A DNA stretch of 64,000 nucleotides from Myxococcota bacterium (GCA_020630615.1 JAHDBA010000001.1:155881-219880), one strand, 5' to 3'. Counted from the first letter of the stretch, positions 28,387 to 55,876 are shown. Program-made: numbers and translations. Notes: generated from the letters alone by a model not told the origin.

Positions 28387-30987
28387 ATGAGTACAGAGAA
28401 AGAGCGTGAACTAAATGGACAACTTTTTGCGACGTTGAAAAAGTACTCGACACTCACGCCTGGGCTCTTAGAAGAAAGCTTTAAAAGATACCTCACAAAT
28501 CCAAAGTTAACTCTTGAATCGATTCTGCTGAACTCCGGTGAAGACAAAGAAAGACTGCGTGCTGTATTGCAAGCAGTTTGGCGTTTTGAACCTTTAGGCT
28601 CGTATGCACCCAAATCGATGGAGATTCAGAAGTCAAAAGACTATGCACACGGAACACTTCTGTTGAATACGGGCGGTACTTTTACTGCATTGATTTGCGA
28701 TCTACGTTTTAAAGTTCAACTTGAGCAAGCAAATATTCGTGTTTCGAAATACATTTTTGTCTTTCATGACGAGCTGCAGAGCTTGCGTCAAACGATCGGT
28801 GTTGCTTTGGGCCAGAAAAGTGTTGCGAGCTCTCCGATTGTAAAGCAAGACGACAAAGAGGCACCCTCGTTACCGACCCCAACGCTACACCTTGGTGATG
28901 AGCTTGCACTCACACAAGGTATTCAAGAGAGTAATTTAGGTAAAGGAATCGACTTCACATCAGGGTCGATTCAACGATCACAGAGCGCGAATACGCCGAC
29001 CTTGAATGGTGAAGACGCTCTAATCGGTCGTTCTTTTGGTCCCTATAAGGTTCTTGGAGAGCTTGGCCGAGGAGGCATGGCCATCGTCTATAAGGCGCAA
29101 GACCAAAACTCTGGGCAGGAGGTCGCATTAAAGCTTATGAATCGTGAAGCATGCGAAAACGCAGATTTTCGTAATCGCTTTGAACGTGAAGTGAAAGCAT
29201 CGATGTCCTTACAGCATCCAAATATTGTCGCAGTGTTGGGCTCGGGTGAGGCGCACAATCAGCTTTATATGGCTACCGAATTTGTTCCGCGTGGCGATGT
29301 GCAACAGCTCTTTCGCAAAACGGGGCCGATGCCATCCGCGCTTGTTGCGAAGATTATATCCGAACTCCTTTCAGCACTTGCGTACAGTCATCGACACGGT
29401 CTTGTCCATCGGGATATTAAACCGGCGAATATCCTAATCGGTGGGCTTGGTACCCTTAAACTCGCTGATTTTGGAATCGCAAAGCCGAGTTCGGAAAGCA
29501 ACATGACGCAAGCGGGTGCTCTAATCGGTACCCCAGCTTACATGAGTCCGGAACAGGCTCGCGGCGAGAGTCTCGATGGACGGAGTGATCTTTTTAGTGT
29601 CGGTCTGATGGCTTACGAACTGCTTTCCGGTATCAACCCAATTTTAGATGAGAATCCGTCGACGACGATATTGAATGTTGCACAGGGCAGAATCCCGAGG
29701 TTGGAGCGTGCAGCCCCGTGGGCGGCCGGGCCATTGATTCAAACAATCAATCGATTGATGTCAAACGACCGTGATCTTCGCTATGTTGAAGCGGACGACG
29801 CGTTACGCGAATTGCATCCGATGTTAAAATGGATCGACGGACATTATCCACGCATGGTCTCCACTGTTCTTCATAGCCCAATGGAAAAATCACGACAGAT
29901 GCGCCATGAAGAAGCAAAACTAAGCTTTGACATGGGGCGTCAGATCCTTGAAACACCGTCCTCTCATGATGAAAGTGCCTTTTGGTGGTTAAAGCGTGCG
30001 GCAATGCTAGCCCATGATGAAAAGAGAATTACCTCGTTTACCCAAGATATCGGTCACCAAAATGACTTCGGATGGGATGTCATTGACGATAACAACTATC
30101 TCGAGCTCTTAGAGTCAATTGAAGAAGATGATGATCGAGAGCTTGATCATGCAACCTTATGGTTACGGGCCTCAGATATTGCAGGATCCCTTCGCGCAGT
30201 ACACGCACGCTTTTGCGCTCTCGTGGCGCACGTCGTCGAAAAACCCAACGACGCAATGGGCCGCCACAAGTTGAGTCTCTGGCTCAATGAAAATGAAGGG
30301 GAGAGTGAGGCAAGTGCTCGCCATATTCTCTTGCCCACTTTAGAGCAGCTTGTCGAAGGACAGGTCACCTGGATGACCTCTTTACATTCTAAGGTTCCGA
30401 GCCACGGTCAGGGGGCAACAGGGATCGCAAGTCCGACGCAGCTCGCGCATACAATGCTAAAGACGCGTATGGCGATGAATGCCCCGAACGCGGCACAGCG
30501 ACCCATGAATACCGTTGAGGTTCGCGCAACTCGAAAACGATCGGCCCAAGAAATATGGTACGGGCGTTTAAAAGTTGTTGCGATAGTACTGCTCATTGTG
30601 GGGTTGGGTGGTTTTGCTTTGAGTACTATTGCGGCCTTTTCACGTTCAGCCAAAGAATTTAAAAAGGAAGATGTGAGCAGTGTCGAAGTTCGACTCGAAG
30701 ATAAAAAAATACGCCTTTCAAACCGCAGGCAAAAACGCGAGCTCGCGACGGCAAAAAAACGATTAAAGGCAGATCCTCGTGGTGCTCTGGGTGCGCTGGA
30801 TATGGTGATTCGACTTGACCGTGAATCTTCAGAACACTTTGAAGCGCGTTTGCTCCGTGCAAAGACTCGTGCGCTCTTAGGGCAAAAGAAGAAAGCAAAA
30901 CAAGATTTAGACTATATTATCGAGCACATGGACGATGATGCAGAGTTTGTCTCTCAGGCAAAGGAGCTCCTTGAGACTTTAAAGTAA
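28387..30987 (+). CDS. Hanks-type serine/threonine protein kinase with N-terminal unknown domain, one TM helix and C-terminal extracytoplasmic region
   Basis: GELGRGGMAIVYKAQD (P-loop), VALK, HRDIKPANILI, DFGIAK, GTPAYMSPEQ; TM LKVVAIVLLIVGLGGFALSTIAAF. Confidence 0.85.
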   Translation: MSTEKERELNGQLFATLKKYSTLTPGLLEESFKRYLTNPKLTLESILLNSGEDKERLRAVLQAVWRFEPLGSYAPKSMEIQKSKDYAHGTLLLNTGGTFTALICDLRFKVQLEQANIRVSKYIFVFHDELQSLRQTIGVALGQKSVASSPIVKQDDKEAPSLPTPTLHLGDELALTQGIQESNLGKGIDFTSGSIQRSQSANTPTLNGEDALIGRSFGPYKVLGELGRGGMAIVYKAQDQNSGQEVALKLMNREACENADFRNRFEREVKASMSLQHPNIVAVLGSGEAHNQLYMATEFVPRGDVQQLFRKTGPMPSALVAKIISELLSALAYSHRHGLVHRDIKPANILIGGLGTLKLADFGIAKPSSESNMTQAGALIGTPAYMSPEQARGESLDGRSDLFSVGLMAYELLSGINPILDENPSTTILNVAQGRIPRLERAAPWAAGPLIQTINRLMSNDRDLRYVEADDALRELHPMLKWIDGHYPRMVSTVLHSPMEKSRQMRHEEAKLSFDMGRQILETPSSHDESAFWWLKRAAMLAHDEKRITSFTQDIGHQNDFGWDVIDDNNYLELLESIEEDDDRELDHATLWLRASDIAGSLRAVHARFCALVAHVVEKPNDAMGRHKLSLWLNENEGESEASARHILLPTLEQLVEGQVTWMTSLHSKVPSHGQGATGIASPTQLAHTMLKTRMAMNAPNAAQRPMNTVEVRATRKRSAQEIWYGRLKVVAIVLLIVGLGGFALSTIAAFSRSAKEFKKEDVSSVEVRLEDKKIRLSNRRQKRELATAKKRLKADPRGALGALDMVIRLDRESSEHFEARLLRAKTRALLGQKKKAKQDLDYIIEHMDDDAEFVSQAKELLETLK

Positions 30988-31390: not shown

Positions 31391-33010
31391 TTGGGTCATA
31401 GTATTCATATGTCACACACAAGAACACCTCCAAGCACTTTGCCACCTCTTGTCGCCTTTGTGGGCGCTCTGCTCACTATGAGTGTGAATGTTTTCGCTAT
31501 GAACACCAGTGATGTGAACGAGCGTGTTGGGGTTGAAATCAATCCAAATGATAGCGTTGAACCTTTGGAGAGTATTGAAGATGTTGCAGCTCGAGAGCTT
31601 TTAATCGAGAAGCCCAACCACGTAGCTCTTCAAGAGTTCACCAATACATTAATTCGAAACGCCCCGGAGTGCATGAGTCATATTGAGAAGACTACATCAG
31701 CAGGACTCGGCTGGTTTACCTATACTTTTTCTTCTTCGGACTGCGTTGAAACATTGATTGAAAGTGCAAGCGCTTCAAAGCTTGAGGTTGAAGGTAAAGC
31801 TCTTCGCATTGCGCGCCAAGGTGTGGTGACAGTCGCACAGATGACGAAAGACGCAATGAGTGCTCAATCTTGGCATCACGAGAGCATGGTTTCAAACGCA
31901 ATATGGTCAGAGCTTCAAGGTCATCCCGGTCAACGTATGGGTGTTGTTGACACCGGCTTGATTCGTGGACACGAAGATCTCGATTCGAAAGATTTTGCGG
32001 GTTATGACTTCATCCATGACGCATCGGTAGCAGCCGACCATGATGGGCGAGATGCTGACTATCAAGACCTGGGTGATGGCGGCGTCTGCAATGGGCAAGA
32101 AGTGAGTGATACGTGGCACGGAACCCATGTGAGTGGGTTAATGGTTGCAGAACCGAACAACGATCGCGGTGTTGCTGGAGTCAACTGGAATGCGGGTCTC
32201 GTTACCGTTCGTGCGGTGGGACGATGTGGCGGCTTTGATAGCGATGTTTATAGCGGCGCATTATGGATGGCAGGAGAACACATCGATGGAGTTCCTGACA
32301 TTGCAGCCGAAGATCGGGTTTCTGTGATTAACCTTTCGTTAAGCTCTCAAGAAGAGTGTAATCCCTACGTACAAACCGTTATGGATCGCCTGGCTGAACT
32401 TGGCGTTATCGTTGTTGTCGCTTCCGGTAACCAGGGAAAAGCAAGTATTGGTGCGCCTGGTTCATGTGATGGCGTGATCACAGTAGGTGCGCACGACCGT
32501 GATGGTGTGATGACAGAGTATACAAACCATGATGCGTCTCTTGATATTTTAGCGCCTGGCGGTGTTCCGGGTGATGGAATGGTGTCGACTTTAGGCCCAG
32601 CAAAAGACGCATACGGATATCGTGTGGGAACATCGATGGCAGCTCCTCTTGTCGCTGGCTCAATTTCCTTGCTTCAAAGCGTATACCCGGAACTAAGCGC
32701 TTCGATGGTGAAGTCGATCTTCCAGAAACTCCCCCGATGTACAGACTGCTCAGACAATACACCAAAGCTTGAGCTTGACGCGCTCATCTCCATCGCGTCA
32801 GAGGTTGTTCCAGGTTTTGAAGAAGAACAATCACGATTGGTCGATGAAGGTTTTCTAGAGTACTATACCGGTGGTGTTGATGGCACGCAGGAGCTTGCAA
32901 GCGGTTGTGCCCAAGCCAGTTCGAACCAACACGGATTCTTCCTTGCCTTTATGGTCGTTCTTTCAGCACTTGCCCGCGCACGCCAAGGTGATGCAGTCAT
33001 CAAGGTGTAA
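31391..33010 (+). CDS. Subtilisin-like S8 serine protease, secreted, with MYXO-CTERM-like C-terminal tail
   Basis: Catalytic-triad motifs VVDTGL (Asp), HGTHVSG (His), GTSMAAPLVAG (Ser); TTG start with GGAAGG RBS; C-terminus …SGCAQASS…FFLAFMVVLSALARARQ (Cys tripeptide + hydrophobic + Arg). Confidence 0.85.
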   Translation: MGHSIHMSHTRTPPSTLPPLVAFVGALLTMSVNVFAMNTSDVNERVGVEINPNDSVEPLESIEDVAARELLIEKPNHVALQEFTNTLIRNAPECMSHIEKTTSAGLGWFTYTFSSSDCVETLIESASASKLEVEGKALRIARQGVVTVAQMTKDAMSAQSWHHESMVSNAIWSELQGHPGQRMGVVDTGLIRGHEDLDSKDFAGYDFIHDASVAADHDGRDADYQDLGDGGVCNGQEVSDTWHGTHVSGLMVAEPNNDRGVAGVNWNAGLVTVRAVGRCGGFDSDVYSGALWMAGEHIDGVPDIAAEDRVSVINLSLSSQEECNPYVQTVMDRLAELGVIVVVASGNQGKASIGAPGSCDGVITVGAHDRDGVMTEYTNHDASLDILAPGGVPGDGMVSTLGPAKDAYGYRVGTSMAAPLVAGSISLLQSVYPELSASMVKSIFQKLPRCTDCSDNTPKLELDALISIASEVVPGFEEEQSRLVDEGFLEYYTGGVDGTQELASGCAQASSNQHGFFLAFMVVLSALARARQGDAVIKV

Positions 33011-44754: not shown

Positions 44755-46350
44755 TTAAGTGAGCGGACCCCCGATACCACCCTCATCCCATCCGATTGCC
44801 AGGGTTGCAGGTACATTCTCACTTTCATCGTTCCCTTGTGTTAACGCTTGTTTGAGGACTCCGGTACCCTTACGTTTGAGCATCGCATCCCATTCGATGA
44901 ATGCTTGGCCACCACGCTTTTCATATTCGCTTTGCCATAGCTCAAAGGCCTCTGCGCAAGCATGATCGATGAAGGTTAGGTTACCGATATGGAGATGCAC
45001 TTCGTGCTTTTTCGGTAGCGCTTTCAGTCGTTCTTGCAGCTTCGGTAGACATAGAAAGGTTGCTGCACCCGCAAGGTCGACATCGATCCGCCCATCCTCT
45101 CTCGATTGCTCGTTGATTTCAATATGCGAAAAGATCCAAACCAATCGAAAGACACTTAAAATTAATCCAATGAAAAGACCCTCAAGAAGCTCAGTGTTAA
45201 CGATGGCAACGATCGTCAGAAGATAAATAGTAAATTCCGCTTTGGAGCTTTTGTAGAGCTCTATCACGTCACCAATATGTAAGAGCTTTATCCCTGCAGC
45301 AATAAGAATGGCCGCGAGCGCAGCAACCGGAATAATTGCGAGCAGCCAACCGAATGCAAAGACTGCCACGGTTAAGAAGAGTCCATGAAAAATAGCCGCG
45401 AGTCGTGTTTGCCCACCCATTTCAATGCTTGTCTTTGTACGAACAACAACACCTGTCAGCGGGAGGCCACCGAGAAGTGCGCAGGCTATGTTGCCAATAC
45501 CGTGTGCAAAGATCTCTCGGTTGAGATTTGATTGGTGGCCTTCTTTTAAACGGTCTGTCGCGTTTGCAGAAAGCAATCCCTCCAAACTCGCAATCGCAAA
45601 GAGCGCAACGAGATAGGTCAAAAACTTTGTATTGAATACATCAACGCTTGCAAAAGACTCGTGATACAGTTTGGGGCTAAAGTTTGCCCATACATCCCCA
45701 ACGTGTGGAAGCCTCTCTTCAATCATAAATGAGACGAGTGTACCCGAAACGATCGCAACGACAGAGGATGGCACCATCTTAAATTTGCCGCGAGCAAGGT
45801 GGTACCAGGCAAAGTAAACCCCAAGACTGATCATAATAACGACCAGGCCTTCATATAAAATCACTTTGGGTTCTAGTGCGAAAAGTGAGCGCACAGCGAG
45901 TGAAACATCTTGTATCGGTTCACCATGGCTCTCGAGTCCTAAGCCCACGCTAAGTTGTGACGTGATAATGAGTATACCGATTCCCGATAGAAGACTAAAT
46001 GTGAGCGATGGTGGGACGGCTTGAAACCAAACTGCTTGACGAGTCAAACCCATCAATACTTGTGCGACCCCGCAAATCAGGGTGGCCAAGGCAAGACCTT
46101 CAAGACCAAACTCATGTACGAGGTGCGCCGACACAACAATAAGACCCGCGGCAGGGCCACTAACTTGCAGCGGCGAACCGGAAAGGGCACCTACCAAGAC
46201 GCCACCAATCACCGCGGAGATGATTCCATACATCGGTGGAACATCACATGATACAGCAACACCAATTGCAAGTGGAATCGCGACAAACATAACCGCCAAG
46301 CCTGCCCGCAAGTCCAGGGCAAGTGTTTGTTTAAGCTTTCCAGCACTCAT
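44755..46350 (-). CDS. sulP: SulP-family anion transporter with C-terminal STAS domain
   Basis: SulP TM core and STAS-like C-terminus; GAGGGG RBS before ATG 46350. Confidence 0.85.
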   Translation of the reverse strand: MSAGKLKQTLALDLRAGLAVMFVAIPLAIGVAVSCDVPPMYGIISAVIGGVLVGALSGSPLQVSGPAAGLIVVSAHLVHEFGLEGLALATLICGVAQVLMGLTRQAVWFQAVPPSLTFSLLSGIGILIITSQLSVGLGLESHGEPIQDVSLAVRSLFALEPKVILYEGLVVIMISLGVYFAWYHLARGKFKMVPSSVVAIVSGTLVSFMIEERLPHVGDVWANFSPKLYHESFASVDVFNTKFLTYLVALFAIASLEGLLSANATDRLKEGHQSNLNREIFAHGIGNIACALLGGLPLTGVVVRTKTSIEMGGQTRLAAIFHGLFLTVAVFAFGWLLAIIPVAALAAILIAAGIKLLHIGDVIELYKSSKAEFTIYLLTIVAIVNTELLEGLFIGLILSVFRLVWIFSHIEINEQSREDGRIDVDLAGAATFLCLPKLQERLKALPKKHEVHLHIGNLTFIDHACAEAFELWQSEYEKRGGQAFIEWDAMLKRKGTGVLKQALTQGNDESENVPATLAIGWDEGGIGGPLT

Positions 46351-46606
46351 GTTCAGCCCCTCTGTTTCCATGTGGCTCATGTTCTGAAAGGAAAATCAAA
46401 AGCTCCGCAAGAGTCTTTTCCTTTGATAGCCAGGTTTGTGCACAACGATCTTTATCAACTCTGTACCGATTTCGTCGCCCGTGTCGAGTCACTTGAACCA
46501 TTCCGCTTTCTTTAAGTTCGTGGATGATTTTCGATGCCGTCCGATCTGTAACGTTAAGCGCGATGGCCAAGTCCCGGATTTTGATCGTCGGGCAACGTTG
46601 AATCAT
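46331..46606 (-). CDS. Small winged-helix (HTH_24/DeoR-like) transcriptional regulator
   Basis: IRDLAIALNVTDRTASKIIHELKESGMVQVTRHG HTH; overlaps sulP start by 20 nt (operon). Confidence 0.55.
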   Translation of the reverse strand: MIQRCPTIKIRDLAIALNVTDRTASKIIHELKESGMVQVTRHGRRNRYRVDKDRCAQTWLSKEKTLAELLIFLSEHEPHGNRGAEHECWKA

Positions 46607-46679: not shown

Positions 46680-46703
46680 AAGATACTTGTTTCATGTATC
46701 TTT
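46680..46703. promoter_or_regulatory. Perfect 7-bp inverted repeat aagatac-N10-gtatctt (candidate operator) in divergent intergenic region
   Basis: Read directly; lies between the HTH regulator start and the ABC promoter. Confidence 0.35.
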
Positions 46704-46718
46704 AAGCATGTTTCAATA

Positions 46719-46744
46719 TTGACGAATAAAAATTCATGTATAAT
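46719..46744 (+). promoter_or_regulatory. Putative sigma-70 promoter with extended -10 (ttgacg … tgtataat)
   Basis: TGnTATAAT ends 8 nt before ATG 46753, implying a leaderless or near-leaderless transcript; -35/-10 spacing is short (14 nt). Confidence 0.4.
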
Positions 46745-46752
46745 AGTACAGC

Positions 46753-48378
46753 ATGGACGAAATACGCAGTGCACCTCGGTCATTACTCGACTTCTTTCAA
46801 CCCGACCGCAGGATTTTCTTTGCGATAGCGACTTATGGGGCTTTTGTGAGTGTGTTGTCGCTCGCAATCCCCATTTCAATCCAGTCAATTGTAAATACCG
46901 TTGCCTTCGGTCGATTCGTTGAGTCGTTGTTTACGCTGACCGTGATACTGGCACTTGCTTTGATCGTATCACAAATCCTGCGAGCATTTCAAACGTGGCT
47001 CATCGAGGTCTTGCAGCGTAGGCTTTTGATTCGGGTCGCTGCGCATATTACCAATCACCCTTTTAACCGCCCGGATGCTCATGAAAATCAGCGTGCTCGA
47101 GAAGAGATCGCAAATCAGTTTATGGAGATTTTTTCAATCAAAAAGTCGCTGACCTCGGCTCTGGTTACCCTTCTCGACTCCCTCTTACTTGCGCTGAGCG
47201 GATGCATTCTACTGGCTTTTTATCACCCGTGGCTTTTTGCGCTTGATATCGTCTTCATATGCGTTTGTTTCTTGGTTCTGATTCCTCTCGGGAGACATGG
47301 AGTGTCGTCGGCAGCCGCTGAAAGTAAAAGCAAATACAAGCTTCAGGCCTGGGTTGAGCGCTTGGCGAAAGTCCAACATCATGATCTTCTGCACGGTGCT
47401 CACGACGCCATTAAGATTATTGGTAATGAAAAGATCCATAGCTATATCAAGAACCGTCAGTCACACTTTCGAGTTGTTTTTCGTCAGATTAAGTGGACGC
47501 TTTTTGGGTCCGTTTTGATGAATCTTTCGATTCTTACGGTAGGGGGAACCCTTGTCATCAACAATCAGTTGTCACTTGGACAGTTGGTGGCAGCTGAAGT
47601 CATCGTAAACATGATGGCTGTTGCACTGGTCAAGATTGGCTCGAAGCTTGAGACGTTTTTTGATGCACTGATCAGTGTTCAAAAGTTGGAAGAGTGTTTG
47701 TTCCACATGAGTGACGAGGAGTCTTTCTCGAAGGGGTACACTCAGGTTACGAATATTGAGAGCGTCAACTTCTTTACAAATGGAACGACGCTCCTCGAGT
47801 TGAGGGAAAAAGAGGTTTGTATTGCCGACGGATTATTACCACACCAAGAGCAAGAGCTGACACGGGCTTTTCACGGTTTTCATTTACGACGTAATCGGAT
47901 TCACTTAAATCGTAGCGACCTCTTGGACCTTTCGCCGGTCGATTTGAGTATGAGGATTTGTATTTTAGAACAACCCTTTGTTTGGACCGGAACGATTATG
48001 GCGGCTTTCGAAACGATCAAACCCGATATTGAAGAGAATCTCATTTGGACTCTTCTAAAAAGTGTCGAACTCGATGATGCGGTACGCAAGTTTGAGAAGG
48101 GTTTGCGAACATCTCTTTATGCAAGTCAACAGCGATTAACGGTCTCACAACGTTGCCAGTTGTCCTTGGCCCTTGCATTGGCCCGAGAGCCTTGTGTGCT
48201 CGTATCAAATCGTTTCTTCGAGCAGATCCCATTTCCGCTTCGGGAACGGATTTTACCCCGACTTCTTGAGTCTCCAACACATATCTGGCTCATTATTACG
48301 GACGAGCCTGATATCGTAAGGCATGGTTCCTTGGTAGGGCCTCACTTGCAAACTTGGTGTCAAGGGGATGCATCATGA
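46753..48378 (+). CDS. ABC exporter-like protein (T1SS-type) with intact 6-TM domain but degenerate nucleotide-binding domain
   Basis: TMD typical of ABC exporters; C-terminal domain keeps Q-loop-like ILEQPFVWTGTI and signature-like LTVSQRCQLSLALALAREP, but there is no GxxGxGK[ST] Walker A, no Walker B acidic pair (VLVSNRFF), and no H-loop. Confidence 0.7.
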   Translation: MDEIRSAPRSLLDFFQPDRRIFFAIATYGAFVSVLSLAIPISIQSIVNTVAFGRFVESLFTLTVILALALIVSQILRAFQTWLIEVLQRRLLIRVAAHITNHPFNRPDAHENQRAREEIANQFMEIFSIKKSLTSALVTLLDSLLLALSGCILLAFYHPWLFALDIVFICVCFLVLIPLGRHGVSSAAAESKSKYKLQAWVERLAKVQHHDLLHGAHDAIKIIGNEKIHSYIKNRQSHFRVVFRQIKWTLFGSVLMNLSILTVGGTLVINNQLSLGQLVAAEVIVNMMAVALVKIGSKLETFFDALISVQKLEECLFHMSDEESFSKGYTQVTNIESVNFFTNGTTLLELREKEVCIADGLLPHQEQELTRAFHGFHLRRNRIHLNRSDLLDLSPVDLSMRICILEQPFVWTGTIMAAFETIKPDIEENLIWTLLKSVELDDAVRKFEKGLRTSLYASQQRLTVSQRCQLSLALALAREPCVLVSNRFFEQIPFPLRERILPRLLESPTHIWLIITDEPDIVRHGSLVGPHLQTWCQGDAS

Positions 48379-49694
48379 AGGTAAGACTTGAAGTGGCCCC
48401 ACAAGAAACGTTGTGGGTACCTTTTAATCAAAAACTACTGAACGCAGCGAAATTTTTGTCGGTATTGACGATCGTGATTGGTGGTCTTGTGCTTGTTTTG
48501 CCATGGCGACAGAACATTTCTGTTACGGGGCAGGTCACTGCGCTAGACCCTAATATGCGGCCACAGGATATCGAAGCGCCGCTTAAAGGTGTCATTAAAA
48601 CCTGGCACGTTCGGGAAGGTGATTATGTTGAAAAGGGTGCATTGCTCGTGACTCTGGTCGACAACGATCCCTTGTACCAAGATCGTATCCAACAGCAGTT
48701 GAATGCCTCAGCGCAAAAACTAAAGCTCTACGAAGAGAAAGAAAATCAGGAGGGTGAGCGCCTCAACGCACTTATCGCGGAGAAAGGGGCAATCTTGGAT
48801 TCCCTGATTCATGAAGTCGAGATGATTCGGGAACAGGTGAGTAAGTCTGAGGCTGAACTCATGGGTGTTCGTTCAAAAGCGAAAACCGCAGAGTTAAATT
48901 ACAAGCGAACTCAAGAGTTATTTCAGAAAGGGCTTCGTTCGCAACGCGATCAAGAACTTGCACAAATGAAAGCAGAAACGACGAGCGCTGCACTTCAGCA
49001 ATATCAAGCGGGGTTGTCAGAGAAACGGTCGAAGTTGAAGTCGACGCAGGCTAAGGTTCAAGAAAAACGGGCTGCCTTGAAAGCCGCACAAGCAAAGCTT
49101 AATGTCGCGATTACAGATATCAAGACTTCTCAACAAGATGCACAGAAAGAAGTTCAAGAAAAAGAGGTGGTGTTTGCTCGACAAAAAAACCAGGAAATTC
49201 GTGCCGCACGCTCGGGTATGGTGACGCAAATTTATAAGGCTGGAGCAAACGTTCAAGTCAAGCAGGGCGATTCACTACTCACAATGGTTCCCCAAAGTCA
49301 GGACCGCATTGTTGAACTCTTTGTTACGGGTAGAGATATTGTTCTGGTTCGACTGGGAACACACGTCCGACTCCAATTTGAAGGATGGCCTGCGATCCAG
49401 TTTGCGGGTTGGCCGTCAATCGCCATTGGCTCTTTCGGGGGTAAAGTTGTTTCAATACAAGCTCAGCATCTGAGCTCAAAACAAGGATATCGAGTTCTTG
49501 TCGAACCGGATGGCGATGTTGAGTGGCCGGATTCAAGATTTCTTTATCAGGGGCTTAAAGCGAAGGGGTGGCTCATTCTTAATCGAGTGAGTCTCGGCTT
49601 TGAAATATGGCGACAGTTGAATGGTTTCCCGCCTACCGGTCAACTTTTTGATAAGCCCGAAAAGGCGCCAAAGTTTAAAGGTAAAAAGTTATGA
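48375..49694 (+). CDS. HlyD-family membrane-fusion (periplasmic adaptor) protein
   Basis: N-terminal TM, long coiled-coil, C-terminal beta domain; ATGA overlap with the upstream gene. Confidence 0.8.
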   Translation: MKVRLEVAPQETLWVPFNQKLLNAAKFLSVLTIVIGGLVLVLPWRQNISVTGQVTALDPNMRPQDIEAPLKGVIKTWHVREGDYVEKGALLVTLVDNDPLYQDRIQQQLNASAQKLKLYEEKENQEGERLNALIAEKGAILDSLIHEVEMIREQVSKSEAELMGVRSKAKTAELNYKRTQELFQKGLRSQRDQELAQMKAETTSAALQQYQAGLSEKRSKLKSTQAKVQEKRAALKAAQAKLNVAITDIKTSQQDAQKEVQEKEVVFARQKNQEIRAARSGMVTQIYKAGANVQVKQGDSLLTMVPQSQDRIVELFVTGRDIVLVRLGTHVRLQFEGWPAIQFAGWPSIAIGSFGGKVVSIQAQHLSSKQGYRVLVEPDGDVEWPDSRFLYQGLKAKGWLILNRVSLGFEIWRQLNGFPPTGQLFDKPEKAPKFKGKKL

Positions 49695-51167
49695 TGCCTC
49701 GAAACATTCAAAAAATGCTGTCACTTCAGCGAACTTACGTCTTGGTTGGCCTTGTCTTGTGTCGATTCGGGCACGCAGCTGAAGTTGAGAATGTCATTTC
49801 CAATGTTTCGGGTGAAAAAGAGTTGTTACAAGATTTTTTGAGCAATGTGCGCGTACAGCATGAGCAGTTTCGCGTTTTTGAGCAGCGTGTGCGTGCCGCC
49901 GAAGCAAATCTGCAAGGGAAGCTCGGCGTGTTTGATCCAAAAATTTACGGCGGTATTCGAGGGCGCACGGGCAAGAACGAGTGGTTGCAGGGGGAAGTAG
50001 GAGTCAAAACTTTACTCCCTTGGTACGGGGTGGAGGCAAGCGTTGGTTATGAAAATTCTGACGGCATCTTCGAGGATTACGAAGGGGCGTACCGGACAAC
50101 CGTTGGTGGAGACTGGGTCGCAAAGCTTCGAGTCCCGGTGTTGAGGGGAGGTTGGTATGACGAAGCGCGCTGGGATCGTGACGAAAGTGTTCTTAAGCTT
50201 GAACTTGTCAATCAAGAGGTGCGAGGACTGGAGCTGGAGTTTCAGTATGAAGCTCTTGAGGCTTTGTGGCGCGCACGAATTGCCGAACGTAAACGTCGTC
50301 TTTACGAAGAAATGGTGACACGAGCTCGAGAAAGAGTTTCGATGATCACGAGTGAAGTCAATGCGGGGAATCGCGCGGAAATAGACCTTGTTGAGGCGCA
50401 CTCGATGCTTGACGACCGAAATGCGCATTTGAAGCGTGCAGAGGCGAAGCTTTCATCTGAAGAAGAGAAATTGTCATTTTTTGCAATGTTTCCGAAGGAA
50501 GGTTCGAACGCACTGGTTGAACAGCATTCAGAGACTCTCGAAGAACATTCCGAACGCTCCCAATGAAATGTGCGAAGACTCCAAATGGATCGAGCGTCAT
50601 CCCAAAATTCTCATGTTGGATGTCAAACTTGAATTGAATGAGCTTCTGAATCGAATGGCAACCAATGAACTTATGCCGAGACTTGACCTCAATGCAAAGT
50701 TGGAGCTTGACACCTTGTCTTTGAATGAAGGGAGTTCGAATAATTATTTCATCGGATTGGATGGTGAATCGTCAATTTTATTGAGGAAGGGACGGGGTAT
50801 ATCAAATATGGCCAAAGCAAATCAAAGGGCGTTGCAAGCTAAACGTGGGGTTCAGGGGCGTGAGTTGCGACAGAAGTGTCGAGCGGCATATCAAGTTCTC
50901 TCTGGCTATGAAGATGCAACCGGCTTTTTAAGTTCGCGAGTGAGTGCGATGACACGGCTGACGGAAGCAGCGCAAAGTGAATTTGCCGTCGGAGCAGGCG
51001 ATCTTATCGACGTCAACGTTCGAGAGTCAAAAGAGATCAAGGCACGAATCGAGTATATTGAAAATCTGGGAGCCGCTCATATCAATGCGGTTCGTTTATT
51101 TGCGATGATGCGTTTGGCTCCCAAGAGTTATCTTGATGCACTCTTTGCTAGCGAATTATCAAACTGA
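49691..51167 (+). pseudogene. TolC-like outer-membrane factor split across two reading frames (apparent frameshift near 50436-50566)
   Basis: First OEP repeat is in frame 2 (49691-50566), second OEP repeat in frame 3 (50436-51167); combined length ~490 aa equals a normal TolC. Confidence 0.55.
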
Positions 51168-51361: not shown

Positions 51362-52723
51362 CTACATTGCTACTGTTTCTGTTTCAGGGCTCGCAAGTTC
51401 TTCTGAAGAAGGTTTGAGTAGAGCAAGGGCGAAAGAGAGTACACCTAGCCGCCCCATAAACATTAGAACTGATATCATGAGCAGTCCAAAATCGTCTAAG
51501 GTTGAAGTTGCACCTAATGAAAGCCCAACGGTGCTTAGCGCGGATACGGCTTCAAACAAAATAGAGAATCCAGAGAGCTTCACATCTTGTGATACGAATA
51601 GACAGAAAATGGCGCCTAAAAGAATTGCTCCATACGAAATGAACGATGATAACGCTAAAAATTGGTTCTTTTTGGGTATACGTACACTTAGAAATGTGAC
51701 GTGTGAGCGACTTTTAGTTACCGATTGGAGGATGGCCCACAACGCAGTGACTGATGTCGTCTTAATACCACCGCCCGTCCCAGCAGGGGACGCACCGATT
51801 GCCATCACGACAAGGATGATAAGGAGGGAGGCGCGTGACATTGTATTGAGGTCAATCGAGTTAAGGCCGACTGTCGTATGTGCAGAAAGAATTTGGAAGA
51901 ATGCGTCGAGTGTGCCGGTACCACGGGGATGCAACCAGCTCCAGTCCGCAAAGAAAGATAAAAGGGTCGCTCCCAGGCAAATCAGAGACGATGTACACAC
52001 AATTATCTAGGAGGTTTGTGTCATACGTGGTTGATGACGAATTAATCGGAGCCAACCGTCGAGAAGAACAATGAAACCGAGTGAGCCTAGAAGGGAAATA
52101 ATTGCGCTCGTATATAGAATGAGTGGAGATGAAGAAAAGTCGCCTAGTGAGTTTTCGAAGAGACTAAAACCAGCCGTGCAAAAAGTAGAGATGCTATGAA
52201 AGAGCGCCATCCAAAGAGGATCCTCTACACCGGCGTTCTGAAAACCCAGATAGAGTATCAAGGCACCACAAGCCTCAATAAGGAGTGTGAAAATGACAAC
52301 GCTGTAAATAAAAGTAAAAGTGGGATATTCATCTGGAAGGTTAAAGTCGAGCTTTAATAACCTGAGCGATAACGTGTCCATTCGACGGCGACAACTGAGG
52401 ATGATGAAGCCACTGATTGCCATATATCCGATGCCACCAATCTGAATAAAGAAGAGTGAAAAAAAGTGTCCCAAAGTGGTGAAATCTTCTGCAAAGTTGG
52501 TTGGGGCAAGTCCGGTGGTACTGACGATAGAAATTGCGTAAAATAGTATTTGAATCGAAGTGAGTTCTTCGTAGCGACTAAAGGGTAGGTAGAGAAGTAC
52601 AAAACATATGAAGCAGAGCAGCAAATATCCGATAATCAGCAAACGGATCGCAGTGCGAGCCGCATTACCTTTAATCGTGAGACGATTTAGAATGAGAGAC
52701 CACAACTCTTTCAGGGAAATCAC
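51362..52723 (-). pseudogene. ktrB: TrkH/KtrB-family K+ transporter membrane subunit interrupted by an in-frame TAG
   Basis: N-terminal half (52007-52723) and C-terminal half (51362-52000, GTG-initiated in the ORF track) share one frame, separated by TAG at 52007-52009; GGGIKT, CTAGF, LSTVGLS selectivity-filter-like motifs are spread over both halves. Confidence 0.55.
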
Positions 52724-53977: not shown

Positions 53978-54484
53978 GCTTCTCCTTTCCTGGTATTTTG
54001 CAAACCTCGTGCCAATGTCTAATATCGCCGCTTGGTTTATTTCTTTGGGCCCAAAAAATAGCTAGTCGTACTATTCTCACCAATATTGATGTGGCTAAAT
54101 TCAGCAATGCTCTAAATAGCAACATAAATAACTGTGTGTTTTTTGCTGCTTTTTCTAGTGCACTGACGACTTCATGAGAAATATTAATAGGTGAACTCAT
54201 TACCATTGCGAACTGATGCTGGACGTAGTTTCGAAGTATATCGATTTGGGAGCGTATGATAACGACTTCACCTTTATCGAAAACCCACTGCAAGTGCATA
54301 TTTAGGGCATGGGGGTGTAATAGTGGTCTGGCCCTTTTATATCAACCGCAGTCTTTAGCGCTTGTTCGACTTAGTACATTAGTTGATATGAAGGGTGTCA
54401 ACACTTACACTAACGACGAGTTGGATGTACTTGTTGTTGCTAAATACAACATTGTAGTAGATGGTAGGAGCCAGGGGTGTTTTC

Positions 54485-55876
54485 ATGGCAGAGCCCGGTT
54501 CCTTTCATTTTCTCTTAGGCAGTGACAACCAAAGTGATATCGAGACTTTCCGGCTCGTTGTCAATACTATTGATCTTCCTGCTTTGGTCTCAACATCAGT
54601 TTTAAGCTTTGAGCGTGCTCTTAGTGAGCACCAACCGATGGTCATCTTGATTGATGAGAATTTTGGTCGAGGTTGCGGCGTCGACATTTGTGCATCGTTA
54701 TGCGACCAAGCCCCTGATCTCTACACGATTGTCCTTTCTGAATCCGAAGACTTTGCGCACGCTATTGAGGTTATCCGTTCGGGTGCATCCGACTATTTGG
54801 TTAAACCACTGACTGAATCGTCGCTAAAACATCGGCTCAAAATTGCGGAACGGGCGATGCGGCCTCACCAGAAGATACGCGAGCTTGAGTCAATAGTAGA
54901 GGCTCAACATGCGAGTGAAGATGATGTCATCGGTCAGTCTGCGTCTTTCCAGCGTGTACAGGAGAGAATCTTACGATATGCGCCGATTGATGCACCCGTA
55001 TTAATGACCGGACCCTCAGGCACAGGTAAGTCGATGAGCGCAAAACTCATTCATGATGCCAGTGTACGCGCGCATAAGCCTTTTCTCGAGGTCAACTGTG
55101 CGACGCTTAATGAGCAACTCATCGACTCAGAGCTTTTCGGCCATGTAAAGGGTGCGTTTACCGGTGCGGAGCGGTCAAAACGCGGTATTTTTGAGGCTGC
55201 ACATGAAGGCACTGTGTTTTTAGATGAAATCGCAGAACTACCCATCGGCCTGCAACCCAAGCTTTTATCTGTTCTCCAGGACGGTCGAGTACGTCGTGTC
55301 GGGGCGACTGAATCCACGCTCGTCGATGTTCGTGTGATTGCTGCTACGAACCGAAATCTTGTTAGTGCGGTCGAGGATGGAAGCTTTCGATCGGACCTAT
55401 ATTTTCGGTTGAACGTTTTGTCGTTGGAGCTACCTGCACTCAAAGATCGCAAAAGCGACATCGCATTACTCGCGCAAAGTATTCTCACATCCAAGTGCGA
55501 AGAGTTTGATTTGAAAAATAAACATCTCAATGCAAGCGCAGTTGAAATGCTGAAGCGCCACACCTGGCCGGGAAATATTCGTGAACTTGAGAATATTTTA
55601 ATTCAGGCAATCGCGATGACTGATGGTGATACAATTCATGTCCAGAACTTACCGAAGAGTGTATTTGATATTGAGCTGACAATCCCTGACTCAGCCCCTT
55701 CAGATACATCATCCTTTCAACATCAGGGTGGTGTGACTCTCGCTGATATTGAAGCTGCCTACATCGATTTTGTACTTCAACAAACAGGGCAGAACAAAAG
55801 CAAAGCAGCAGATATGCTCGGTATCGATCGTGGAACCTTATACAGAAAGCTAAAGCAGAGACGTGACCAAAGCTGA
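54485..55876 (+). CDS. Sigma-54-dependent transcriptional activator (NtrC/Fis family) with atypical N-terminal receiver-like domain
   Basis: AAA+ sigma-54 interaction domain (GPSGTGKSMSAKLIH, ESELFGHVKGAFTGA, GAF/arginine-finger region), C-terminal Fis-type HTH (KAADMLGIDRGTLYRKLK); receiver region lacks the usual acidic pocket. Confidence 0.85.
   Translation: MAEPGSFHFLLGSDNQSDIETFRLVVNTIDLPALVSTSVLSFERALSEHQPMVILIDENFGRGCGVDICASLCDQAPDLYTIVLSESEDFAHAIEVIRSGASDYLVKPLTESSLKHRLKIAERAMRPHQKIRELESIVEAQHASEDDVIGQSASFQRVQERILRYAPIDAPVLMTGPSGTGKSMSAKLIHDASVRAHKPFLEVNCATLNEQLIDSELFGHVKGAFTGAERSKRGIFEAAHEGTVFLDEIAELPIGLQPKLLSVLQDGRVRRVGATESTLVDVRVIAATNRNLVSAVEDGSFRSDLYFRLNVLSLELPALKDRKSDIALLAQSILTSKCEEFDLKNKHLNASAVEMLKRHTWPGNIRELENILIQAIAMTDGDTIHVQNLPKSVFDIELTIPDSAPSDTSSFQHQGGVTLADIEAAYIDFVLQQTGQNKSKAADMLGIDRGTLYRKLKQRRDQS

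Follow-up and report, generated by a model that had tools for sequence, protein, structure and literature searches.

A conserved, putative tripartite exporter from a Myxococcota bacterium whose ABC-fold protein lacks recognisable ATPase motifs

ATP-binding cassette (ABC) exporters are defined by the ATP-driven dimerisation of their nucleotide-binding domains (NBDs), and to our knowledge degenerate nucleotide-binding sites are known only next to a working site. Pumps of the EmrAB-TolC and AaeAB type, on the other hand, are energised by the proton-motive force (PMF) and independently of ATP. Here we describe a locus in a stretch of 64,000 nucleotides from a Myxococcota bacterium (GCA_020630615.1, JAHDBA010000001.1:155881-219880; this whole stretch is called the window, and all positions are counted from its first letter), in which an ABC-like protein of 541 residues is encoded together with a HlyD-type periplasmic adaptor and a TolC-type outer-membrane factor (OMF), and in which the C-terminal domain of the ABC-like protein has the fold of an NBD without any ATPase motif. 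On balance, the locus appears to belong to a conserved, hitherto uncharacterised lineage of tripartite exporters of the ABC type with a pseudo-NBD, which would export without ATP hydrolysis of their own.

Type I secretion and bacteriocin exporters (HlyB, PrtD, PCAT1, ComA; TIGR01193, TIGR01846, TIGR03375, TIGR03796/7) share with the locus a three-gene architecture, translational coupling, and the fold of the membrane domain and NBD. They also give the best sequence matches in the PDB and NCBIfam, and in longer members of the window protein's family an additional N-terminal segment can be aligned to the N-terminus of HlyB. The locus differs from these exporters in the absence of ATPase motifs and of an adjacent RTX or GG-leader substrate gene, in scores below the curated cut-offs, and in the inclusion of a divergent MarR-like regulator. 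Heterodimeric exporters (TM287/288, TmrAB, BmrCD and ABCC proteins) resemble the window protein in having a degenerate site without catalytic Glu and His and with a non-consensus signature. This degenerate site has a structural, hinge-like role, and a second, consensus site is kept, as is ATP binding at the degenerate site (PMC7756269). In contrast, the window has a single gene, implying a homodimer in which both sites are dead and the P-loop is gone.

Precedents for ATP-independent energisation are provided by MFS- and RND-based tripartite pumps (PMC8277102). EmrAB-TolC (with its EmrR/MarR regulator) and AaeAB have a HlyD-family adaptor, a TolC-type OMF and a local MarR-type regulator in common with the locus, but their inner-membrane component belongs to the MFS or PET type, whereas that of the window has the ABC fold. 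SbmA/BacA-like (SLiPT) transporters have the membrane fold of type IV ABC exporters and work without ATP; they are proton-driven, with energy coupling via a glutamate ladder, and an origin from full-length ABC transporters has been proposed for them (PMC13316013). They have lost the NBD and the coupling helices, are importers and act outside tripartite systems, whereas the window protein keeps a folded pseudo-NBD of about 220 residues; moreover, no counterpart of their glutamate ladder that is specific to ATPase-dead members was found in the window family. Full-text literature searches and a Chem Rev review from 2021 on tripartite and type 1 secretion systems yielded no description of a tripartite system whose ABC component is ATPase-dead.

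The ABC-like gene and the relevant parts of its product are the following.

46753..48378, plus strand: ABC-like gene, an uninterrupted open reading frame (ORF) of 541 residues
46753..47712, plus strand: transmembrane domain, residues 1-320, six long helices with the type IV ABC-exporter fold
47713..48378, plus strand: pseudo-NBD, residues 321-541 (about 220 residues), predicted NBD fold without any ATPase motif
47818..47862, plus strand: former Walker A region CIADGLLPHQEQELT, residues 356-370, in the alignment columns of GxxGxGK[ST], no P-loop
47962..47997, plus strand: Q-loop region ILEQPFVWTGTI, residues 404-415, placed by alignments to ComA and ABCC4
48136..48159, plus strand: degenerate signature LTVSQRCQ, residues 462-469, placed by alignments to ComA and ABCC4
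48193..48228, plus strand: former Walker B and D-loop CVLVSNRFFEQI, residues 481-492, placed by alignments including ABCC4 and the clade consensus described below
48289..48312, plus strand: former H-loop LIITDEPD, residues 513-520, His replaced by Asp (IITDEP)

The AlphaFold2 (AF2) model of this protein, for which an alignment of 120 sequences was used as input, has a mean predicted local distance difference test (pLDDT) score of 87, and its helices H4-H320 are mostly above 85. It can be superposed by Foldseek on ATP-bound HlyB (8dck) with a template-modelling (TM) score of 0.87 and a root-mean-square deviation of 3.2 Å over 538 columns, and also on PCAT1, PrtD, TmrAB and TM287/288, the TM scores for HlyB, PCAT1, PrtD and TmrAB being 0.80-0.87. 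ComA, HlyB and PCAT1 were matched along the entire protein in a sequence search of the PDB, and residues 13-506 align with positions 149-656 of the NCBIfam profile bacteriocin_ABC (TIGR01193), albeit with 97.8 bits against a cut-off of 523.85. The score for Pfam ABC_membrane (25.4 bits) is below the gathering score of 28, no match to Pfam ABC_tran (PF00005) was obtained in the 541-residue protein, and the curated NCBIfam cut-offs were reached by no family member tested. Taken alone, the C-terminal 223 residues match NBD2 of ABCC4 (E=5e-5) and, over residues 384-525, an NBD profile made from family members (E=3.5e-20). These two matches, together with the superposition of the AF2 model, indicate that the C-terminal domain is a genuine NBD homologue in which the fold has been retained. 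A first-pass annotation, made from the DNA sequence alone, had recognised both a canonical ABC-exporter transmembrane domain and a residual NBD in this protein, and both assignments are borne out by the model and the matches; the possibility that the C-terminal domain is unrelated to ABC NBDs, named there as grounds for rejection, does not agree with the retained homology and fold.

The motif columns are those of MAFFT alignments in which the sequences (ComA, ABCC4 and family members) are divergent. In these columns, DGLLPHQEQE (inside residues 356-370) stands where GxxGxGK[ST] aligns, and the position of the Q-loop Gln is occupied by Glu405, the next residue being a Gln (ILEQPF). LSGGQ is replaced by LTVSQ (residues 462-466), in which the Leu and Gln alone are kept, and Walker B reads VLVSNR, with N486 in place of the Asp and R487 (nucleotides 48211-48213) in place of the catalytic Glu. 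Since the P-loop Lys, Q-loop Gln, LSGGQ, Walker B Asp-Glu and H-loop His are all replaced, the protein is predicted to be unable to bind or hydrolyse ATP via the canonical ABC mechanism. The earlier observation that Walker A, the Walker B Asp-Glu pair and the H-loop His are missing therefore holds in alignments to ComA, ABCC4 and the family. It had been considered that correcting a sequencing error might restore a P-loop, but neither GK[ST] nor GxxxxG[KR] occurs in any of the three forward frames of 47600-48380, and a P-loop masked by a sequencing frameshift is thus ruled out. Two features that define ABC proteins were tested, and both are wanting: the motifs are absent, and the scores lie below the cut-offs of the curated models. 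The protein is ABC-exporter-like in architecture but is not to be annotated as an ATP-binding ABC transporter. Members of its family are now labelled 'ABC transporter ATP-binding protein' or 'HlyB', names that would predict the wrong biochemistry.

In a protein search with the ABC-like protein 260 relatives were identified. The closest of these (P0002, 39% identity) is encoded on contig JAHDGS010000149 of Myxococcota MAG-51, a metagenome-assembled genome (MAG). There, as in the window, the gene order is SulP, ABC-like, HlyD and OEP (the OMF gene), with 4-bp overlaps, and the window and MAG-51 proteins are 45% (SulP), 39% (ABC-like) and 49% (HlyD) identical. In the protein of MAG-51, an independent, syntenic relative, the motif loss is equally extreme, the Walker B Asp included. 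Between the two ABC-like proteins the membrane domain is 46% identical and the C-terminal half of the pseudo-NBD 40%.

A genome scan of one genome per GTDB species, in which the window's genome is not among the representatives, yielded 350 related loci, the best 80 of which were looked at in detail. Of these 80, some 40 are Myxococcota MAGs (Polyangiales, Sandaracinaceae and 'Myxococcales') with a protein of about 560 residues that is 33-36% identical to the window protein. In these approximately 40 Myxococcota the genes form a four-gene module with 4-bp overlaps, consisting of a divergent MarR-like regulator, the ABC-like protein (about 560 residues), HlyD (about 445 residues) and an intact OEP (474-478 residues); wherever the contig runs on past the ABC-like gene, HlyD is found downstream. 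The P-loop Lys and catalytic Glu are absent from all of these approximately 40 clade proteins, which, for these relatives, answers the question, raised in the first-pass annotation, whether homologous operons retain Walker motifs. In the 36 full-length members of this 560-residue clade the former P-loop reads G..er.T, and a Thr replaces the Lys in at least 80%; the Walker B and D-loop consensus is LDRTLD (also in at least 80%), the H-loop is without His, and the clade signature motif is PLSRxQ. An Arg at the position of the catalytic Glu (R487) is invariant in the clade, the window and MAG-51 (alignment A3). The window protein goes beyond the clade in its losses, in that the Walker B Asp is gone too.

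For 438 pairs within the 560-residue clade, the median ratio of nonsynonymous to synonymous substitution rates (dN/dS) is 0.078 in the membrane domain, 0.215 in residues 386-530 and 0.38 in residues 320-385, all three being approximate values at a dS of 1.3-1.6, near saturation. The ratios of 0.215-0.38 versus 0.078, together with the identities between window and MAG-51, suggest that the pseudo-NBD is relaxed yet still under purifying selection. From these comparisons the motif loss appears to be ancient and inherited, and the ABC-like gene does not appear to be a fresh pseudogene. A lineage-specific pseudogene was considered and is ruled out by the conservation in MAG-51, the approximately 40 Myxococcota genomes and the dN/dS values.

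The other relatives are mainly proteins of 700-750 residues from Planctomycetota, which have the HlyB-like N-terminal extension and are encoded in ABC-HlyD-OEP loci. Most of these Planctomycetota-type relatives have kept the P-loop and have a Walker B 'IDG' (without catalytic Glu), an H-loop 'TGR' (without His) and a signature LSxxQ. Examples of planctomycete proteins that keep the P-loop only are P0038 (Thalassoglobus polymorphus) and P0043 (Symmachiella dynata), and P0077 is an example of an intact family member; Planctomicrobium sp. SH527/SH661, Thalassoglobus and Symmachiella are cultivable carriers. A profile search over 1.84 billion cluster representatives gave 1,889 matches at E<=1e-30, and the 149 nearest 50%-identity representatives were classified. 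The P-loop, Asp-Glu and His are all kept in 15 of these 149, the P-loop only in 63, and none of the three in 31. GK[ST] is missing in 40 of the 149 in total, although some Walker A 'losses' under the strict regular expression (e.g. AASGAGKS) probably still bind nucleotide. On a neighbour-joining tree of the membrane domain only, Walker A has switched state 12 times or more, which is a rough parsimony estimate from a quick tree. The window protein stands at the far end of an erosion of ATPase motifs that has recurred throughout the family inside a conserved tripartite system, and the family forms a graded natural series, from intact proteins via catalytically dead ones with a P-loop and P-loop-less ones to those without even the Walker B Asp. 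Three P-loop-less modules (L010, L029 and L065) are found on different contigs of the MAG 'Deltaproteobacteria bacterium 35D-01' (JBGUEF01), reflecting either a paralogous expansion or a mixed bin.

The other parts of the module in the window are the following.

48375..49694, plus strand: HlyD-type periplasmic adaptor (membrane fusion protein), 439 residues, Pfam HlyD_3
49691..50482, plus strand: TolC/OEP-type OMF, N-terminal part, frame 1, Pfam OEP 48.7 bits
50477..50482, plus strand: T6 homopolymer with a +1 shift of the OMF frame (one extra T relative to an in-frame T5), located by tblastn
50484..51167, plus strand: TolC/OEP-type OMF, C-terminal part, frame 2, Pfam OEP 36.8 bits, NCBIfam type_I_sec_TolC 29.9 bits
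46331..46645, minus strand: winged-helix (MarR/HTH_24-like) regulator, 104 residues, divergent from the ABC-like gene
46680..46702, no strand: inverted repeat AAGATACTTG-ttt-CATGTATCTT, 10-nt arms, 90% complementary, within the 107-bp divergent spacer

The start codon of HlyD (ATG at 48375) overlaps the stop codon of the ABC-like gene (TGA, 48376-48378) in an ATGA, and in the same way the ATG of OEP at 49691 overlaps the HlyD stop codon at 49692-49694 (ATGA). The coupling of the ABC-like gene to HlyD, with a TolC-like gene next, thus agrees with the first-pass annotation. The HlyD gene is intact, and its product scores 44.8 bits for Pfam HlyD_3 (cut-off 22.2). As it reaches only 65.7 bits for NCBIfam type_I_hlyD, below the cut-off of 208.65, the adaptor appears to belong to a divergent subfamily. 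The OEP gene is split over two overlapping ORFs (49691-50566 and 50436-51167), each scoring above the Pfam OEP cut-off, and when rejoined would encode about 491 residues, compared to 474-478 for the intact gene in relatives. In a tblastn search with 60 homologous OEPs, frame-1 matches stop at 50482; the earliest frame-2 match (that of L034) starts from 50478 and the rest resume at 50517-50598. The TolC frameshift called in the first-pass annotation is therefore real as a split of the gene, and is here narrowed down to one extra T in the T6 run. This extra T may be an assembly or sequencing error, a reversible (phase-variable-like) slippage or a real mutation, and the system in this genome may be recently inactivated, phase-variable or mis-assembled. 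The regulator scores just over the Pfam cut-offs for MarR (25.0 bits) and HTH_24 (22.1 bits), and the same divergent position holds a homologous small regulator in 34 Myxococcota loci. The inverted repeat in the divergent spacer is a candidate operator.

The strong conservation of the membrane domain, adaptor and operon layout over many species argues for a working system rather than a pseudogene. Its parts would be the inner-membrane ABC-fold protein, the HlyD-type adaptor, the TolC-type outer-membrane factor and the local MarR-like regulator. We propose that the membrane domain exports via the HlyD-TolC conduit without ATP hydrolysis by the ABC-like protein, and that the pseudo-NBD now acts as a structural, dimerising or regulatory module, in which a replacement contact might be made by the invariant Arg that now occupies the position of the catalytic Glu. 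By analogy with MFS/RND tripartite pumps and SbmA, the driving force would most plausibly be the PMF or a substrate gradient. The divergent MarR-type regulator, as in emrRAB-like operons, and the absence of an adjacent RTX or bacteriocin gene suggest that the cargo would be small molecules or peptides, and that the system would function in efflux rather than in classical toxin secretion. No RTX, GG-leader or bacteriocin substrate gene was found among the neighbours (SulP, regulator and TrkH), small peptide genes not having been searched for systematically.

Among the residues of the membrane domain, Glu282 (transmembrane helix 6, nucleotides 47596-47598) is invariant in the 120-sequence alignment (A4) and is Asp or Glu in 96% of the 149 nearest representatives; the corresponding residue is Asn in PCAT1 and ComA. 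Together with Arg487 it is a candidate residue for a newly gained function. Glu282 is one of 16 positions in residues 1-320 that are at least 85% Asp/Glu family-wide, none of which is specific to ATPase-dead members. Compensatory acidic or basic residues were considered as a proton-coupling signature of the dead members, but no discriminating position was found, which gives no support either way; proton coupling is neither supported nor excluded, because no charged membrane-domain position separates dead from intact members.

To find an NBD that could serve the ABC-like protein as a partner, the six-frame ORFs of at least 80 residues in the 64-kb window were searched with the family NBD profile and with a regular expression for Walker A, signature and Walker B, and no second ABC NBD was found, in agreement with the first-pass annotation, which had seen no second ABC gene nearby. 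Another canonical NBD gene is present within +/-10 kb in only two of the 80 related loci (L040 and L060); a partner NBD encoded nearby is ruled out by the window scan, and these two loci are the only ones among the 80 to have one. Each adaptor and OMF is accompanied by exactly one ABC-like gene in the operons. When the genes around 41 loci were clustered to look for conserved extra genes encoding a substrate or an ATPase, only the four-gene module and local synteny (PurE, DUF481) emerged; shadow ORFs in high-GC genomes confound this analysis.

Several points weigh against the interpretation of the locus as a working, ATP-independent exporter. The reading frame of the OMF gene is shifted, and an in-frame TAG interrupts the TrkH gene next to it, so that the system may be non-functional in this genome. 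Residues 320-385 are merely 9% identical between window and MAG-51, implying that part of the domain is nearly unconstrained, and the near-saturation of dS makes the estimates of selection approximate. The relatives are all MAGs or uncharacterised genomes, the close ones being uncultured MAGs, and the partner search covered only 64 kb of a 267-kb contig. Finally, the membrane domain shows no charged position that sets ATPase-dead apart from ATPase-intact members, and no acquired 'glutamate ladder' is visible.

The frameshift in the OMF gene and the splitting of the adjacent TrkH gene are also what would be expected if the system in this genome were a non-functional relic, its motif-less NBD being the product of neutral erosion. 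The 9% identity of residues 320-385 to the closest relative and the loss of the Walker B Asp, by which the window protein is further degraded than the 560-residue clade, point in the same direction. However, the 541-residue ORF is intact and gives a confident AF2 model (pLDDT 87), the HlyD gene is intact and ATGA-coupled, and the lone frameshift is in a T6 run, as is typical of an assembly error or reversible slippage. Furthermore, this derived state is shared by MAG-51, along with the synteny, at identities of 39-49%, so that the state is old and maintained, with good conservation of the membrane domain (46%) and of the C-terminal NBD half (40%), and the clade dN/dS values are well under 1. 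We therefore regard such a relic as unlikely. The 'decaying secretion system' offered in the first-pass annotation does not describe the ABC gene, in which the same losses are found in MAG-51 and in about 40 intact Myxococcota modules under purifying selection. Its alternative, a non-canonical exporter that is either ATPase-independent or trans-energised, fits the evidence. An exporter energised in trans, in which a canonical half-transporter or ATPase encoded elsewhere in the genome forms a heterodimer with the pseudo-ABC protein or drives it (cf. TM287/288, TmrAB, BmrCD and ABCB5-beta-type partners), seems improbable to us, to about the same degree as the relic. Degenerate NBDs normally operate next to the consensus site of a partner (PMC7756269), the inspection was limited to 64 kb of the genome, and the three paralogous modules in MAG 35D-01 make hetero-oligomers conceivable. 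Yet these paralogues are P-loop-less in all three cases, no NBD gene was found in the window nor within +/-10 kb in 78 of the 80 related loci, and there is strictly one ABC-like gene for each adaptor and OMF. In addition, the signature that would be needed to complete the partner's consensus site is itself degenerate (LTVSQ; PLSRxQ in the clade), and known degenerate halves keep ATP binding and the P-loop (PMC7756269), whereas the window protein is P-loop-less.

A still less probable explanation, in our view, is that the complex is not a transporter at all, but a static trans-envelope scaffold, channel or sensor (e.g. a gated passive pore or a signalling device), in which the ABC fold serves as a membrane anchor for HlyD-TolC. 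The ATP-driven power stroke has been lost in most of the family, and the charged positions of the membrane domain are alike in dead and intact members, as if ATP turnover had never been central. Against this, the whole membrane domain is under very strong constraint, including the cavity-lining helices, no sensory or output domain was detected with Pfam and NCBIfam, and the module has a full pump architecture together with its own MarR-type regulator, as is usual for efflux operons.

For the exporter without ATP hydrolysis of its own, which we prefer, a wider version can be formulated as a speculation that we hold only tentatively and consider rather doubtful. The whole family of Myxococcota and Planctomycetota tripartite exporters might run the ABC fold without ATP, the pseudo-NBDs forming a permanent, nucleotide-free dimerisation or gating module in which the invariant Arg replaces nucleotide contacts, and transport via HlyD-TolC being driven by the PMF or a gradient; the family would then be an intermediate between primary ABC exporters and SLiPT-type secondary transporters. 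If this is true, it would be the first 'ABC-type' tripartite pump to work independently of ATP, and an evolutionary intermediate between these two classes with the NBD still attached. What the locus presents is a single-gene, presumably homodimeric exporter, both sites of which lack the P-loop Lys, catalytic Glu and His, and which has been kept together with its adaptor and channel in dozens of species. It raises the question whether the ABC exporter fold and a HlyD-TolC conduit are workable without ATP, and on which energy.

Promoter and terminator scans of the locus performed no better than on shuffled sequence. The sole promoter-like match upstream of the ABC-like gene (TTGACG-17-AATAGT, 46719-46747) is 6 nt short of the ATG, has no Shine-Dalgarno sequence and belongs to a class of matches that occur at the same rate in shuffled sequence; if it is real, the mRNA of the ABC-like gene would be leaderless or nearly so. 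Directly upstream of the module lies a gene for a SulP-family anion transporter (44755-46380, minus strand), which is also found in MAG-51 (L005:2-1543, minus strand, 45% identity); this synteny was not seen in the high-GC Myxococcota loci. In the window the regulator gene is upstream of SulP on the same strand, with an overlap of about 50 nt, and it may therefore control SulP in addition to, or in place of, the pump. In MAG-51 there is no regulator ORF within the 74-bp gap.

On the other side of the module, a TrkH-family cation transporter (51362-52723, minus strand) is encoded by two ORFs of 238 and 212 residues, separated by an in-frame TAG (52007-52009) and covering positions 58-241 and 312-491 of the Pfam TrkH profile. 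The TAG is a substitution and not a homopolymer artefact, which suggests a genuine pseudogenisation or a split gene. The GC content is 47.1% in the window and 47.5% in MAG-51, compared to 62-65% in those loci of the 560-residue clade for which it was computed (L002-L012), and the best non-self match of the phosphoenolpyruvate carboxykinase (PEPCK) is only 70% identical, followed by a 'Deltaproteobacteria MAG' as the next named match at 66%. For these two reasons, the window appears to derive from a deep, poorly sampled low-GC lineage that is a relative of the Myxococcota or 'Deltaproteobacteria'. The window also encodes a Ser/Thr protein kinase (28387-30987, 866 residues), a subtilase (31391-33010) and a sigma-54-dependent response regulator (54461-55876), a gene content that is typically Myxococcota-like and agrees with the taxonomic placement.

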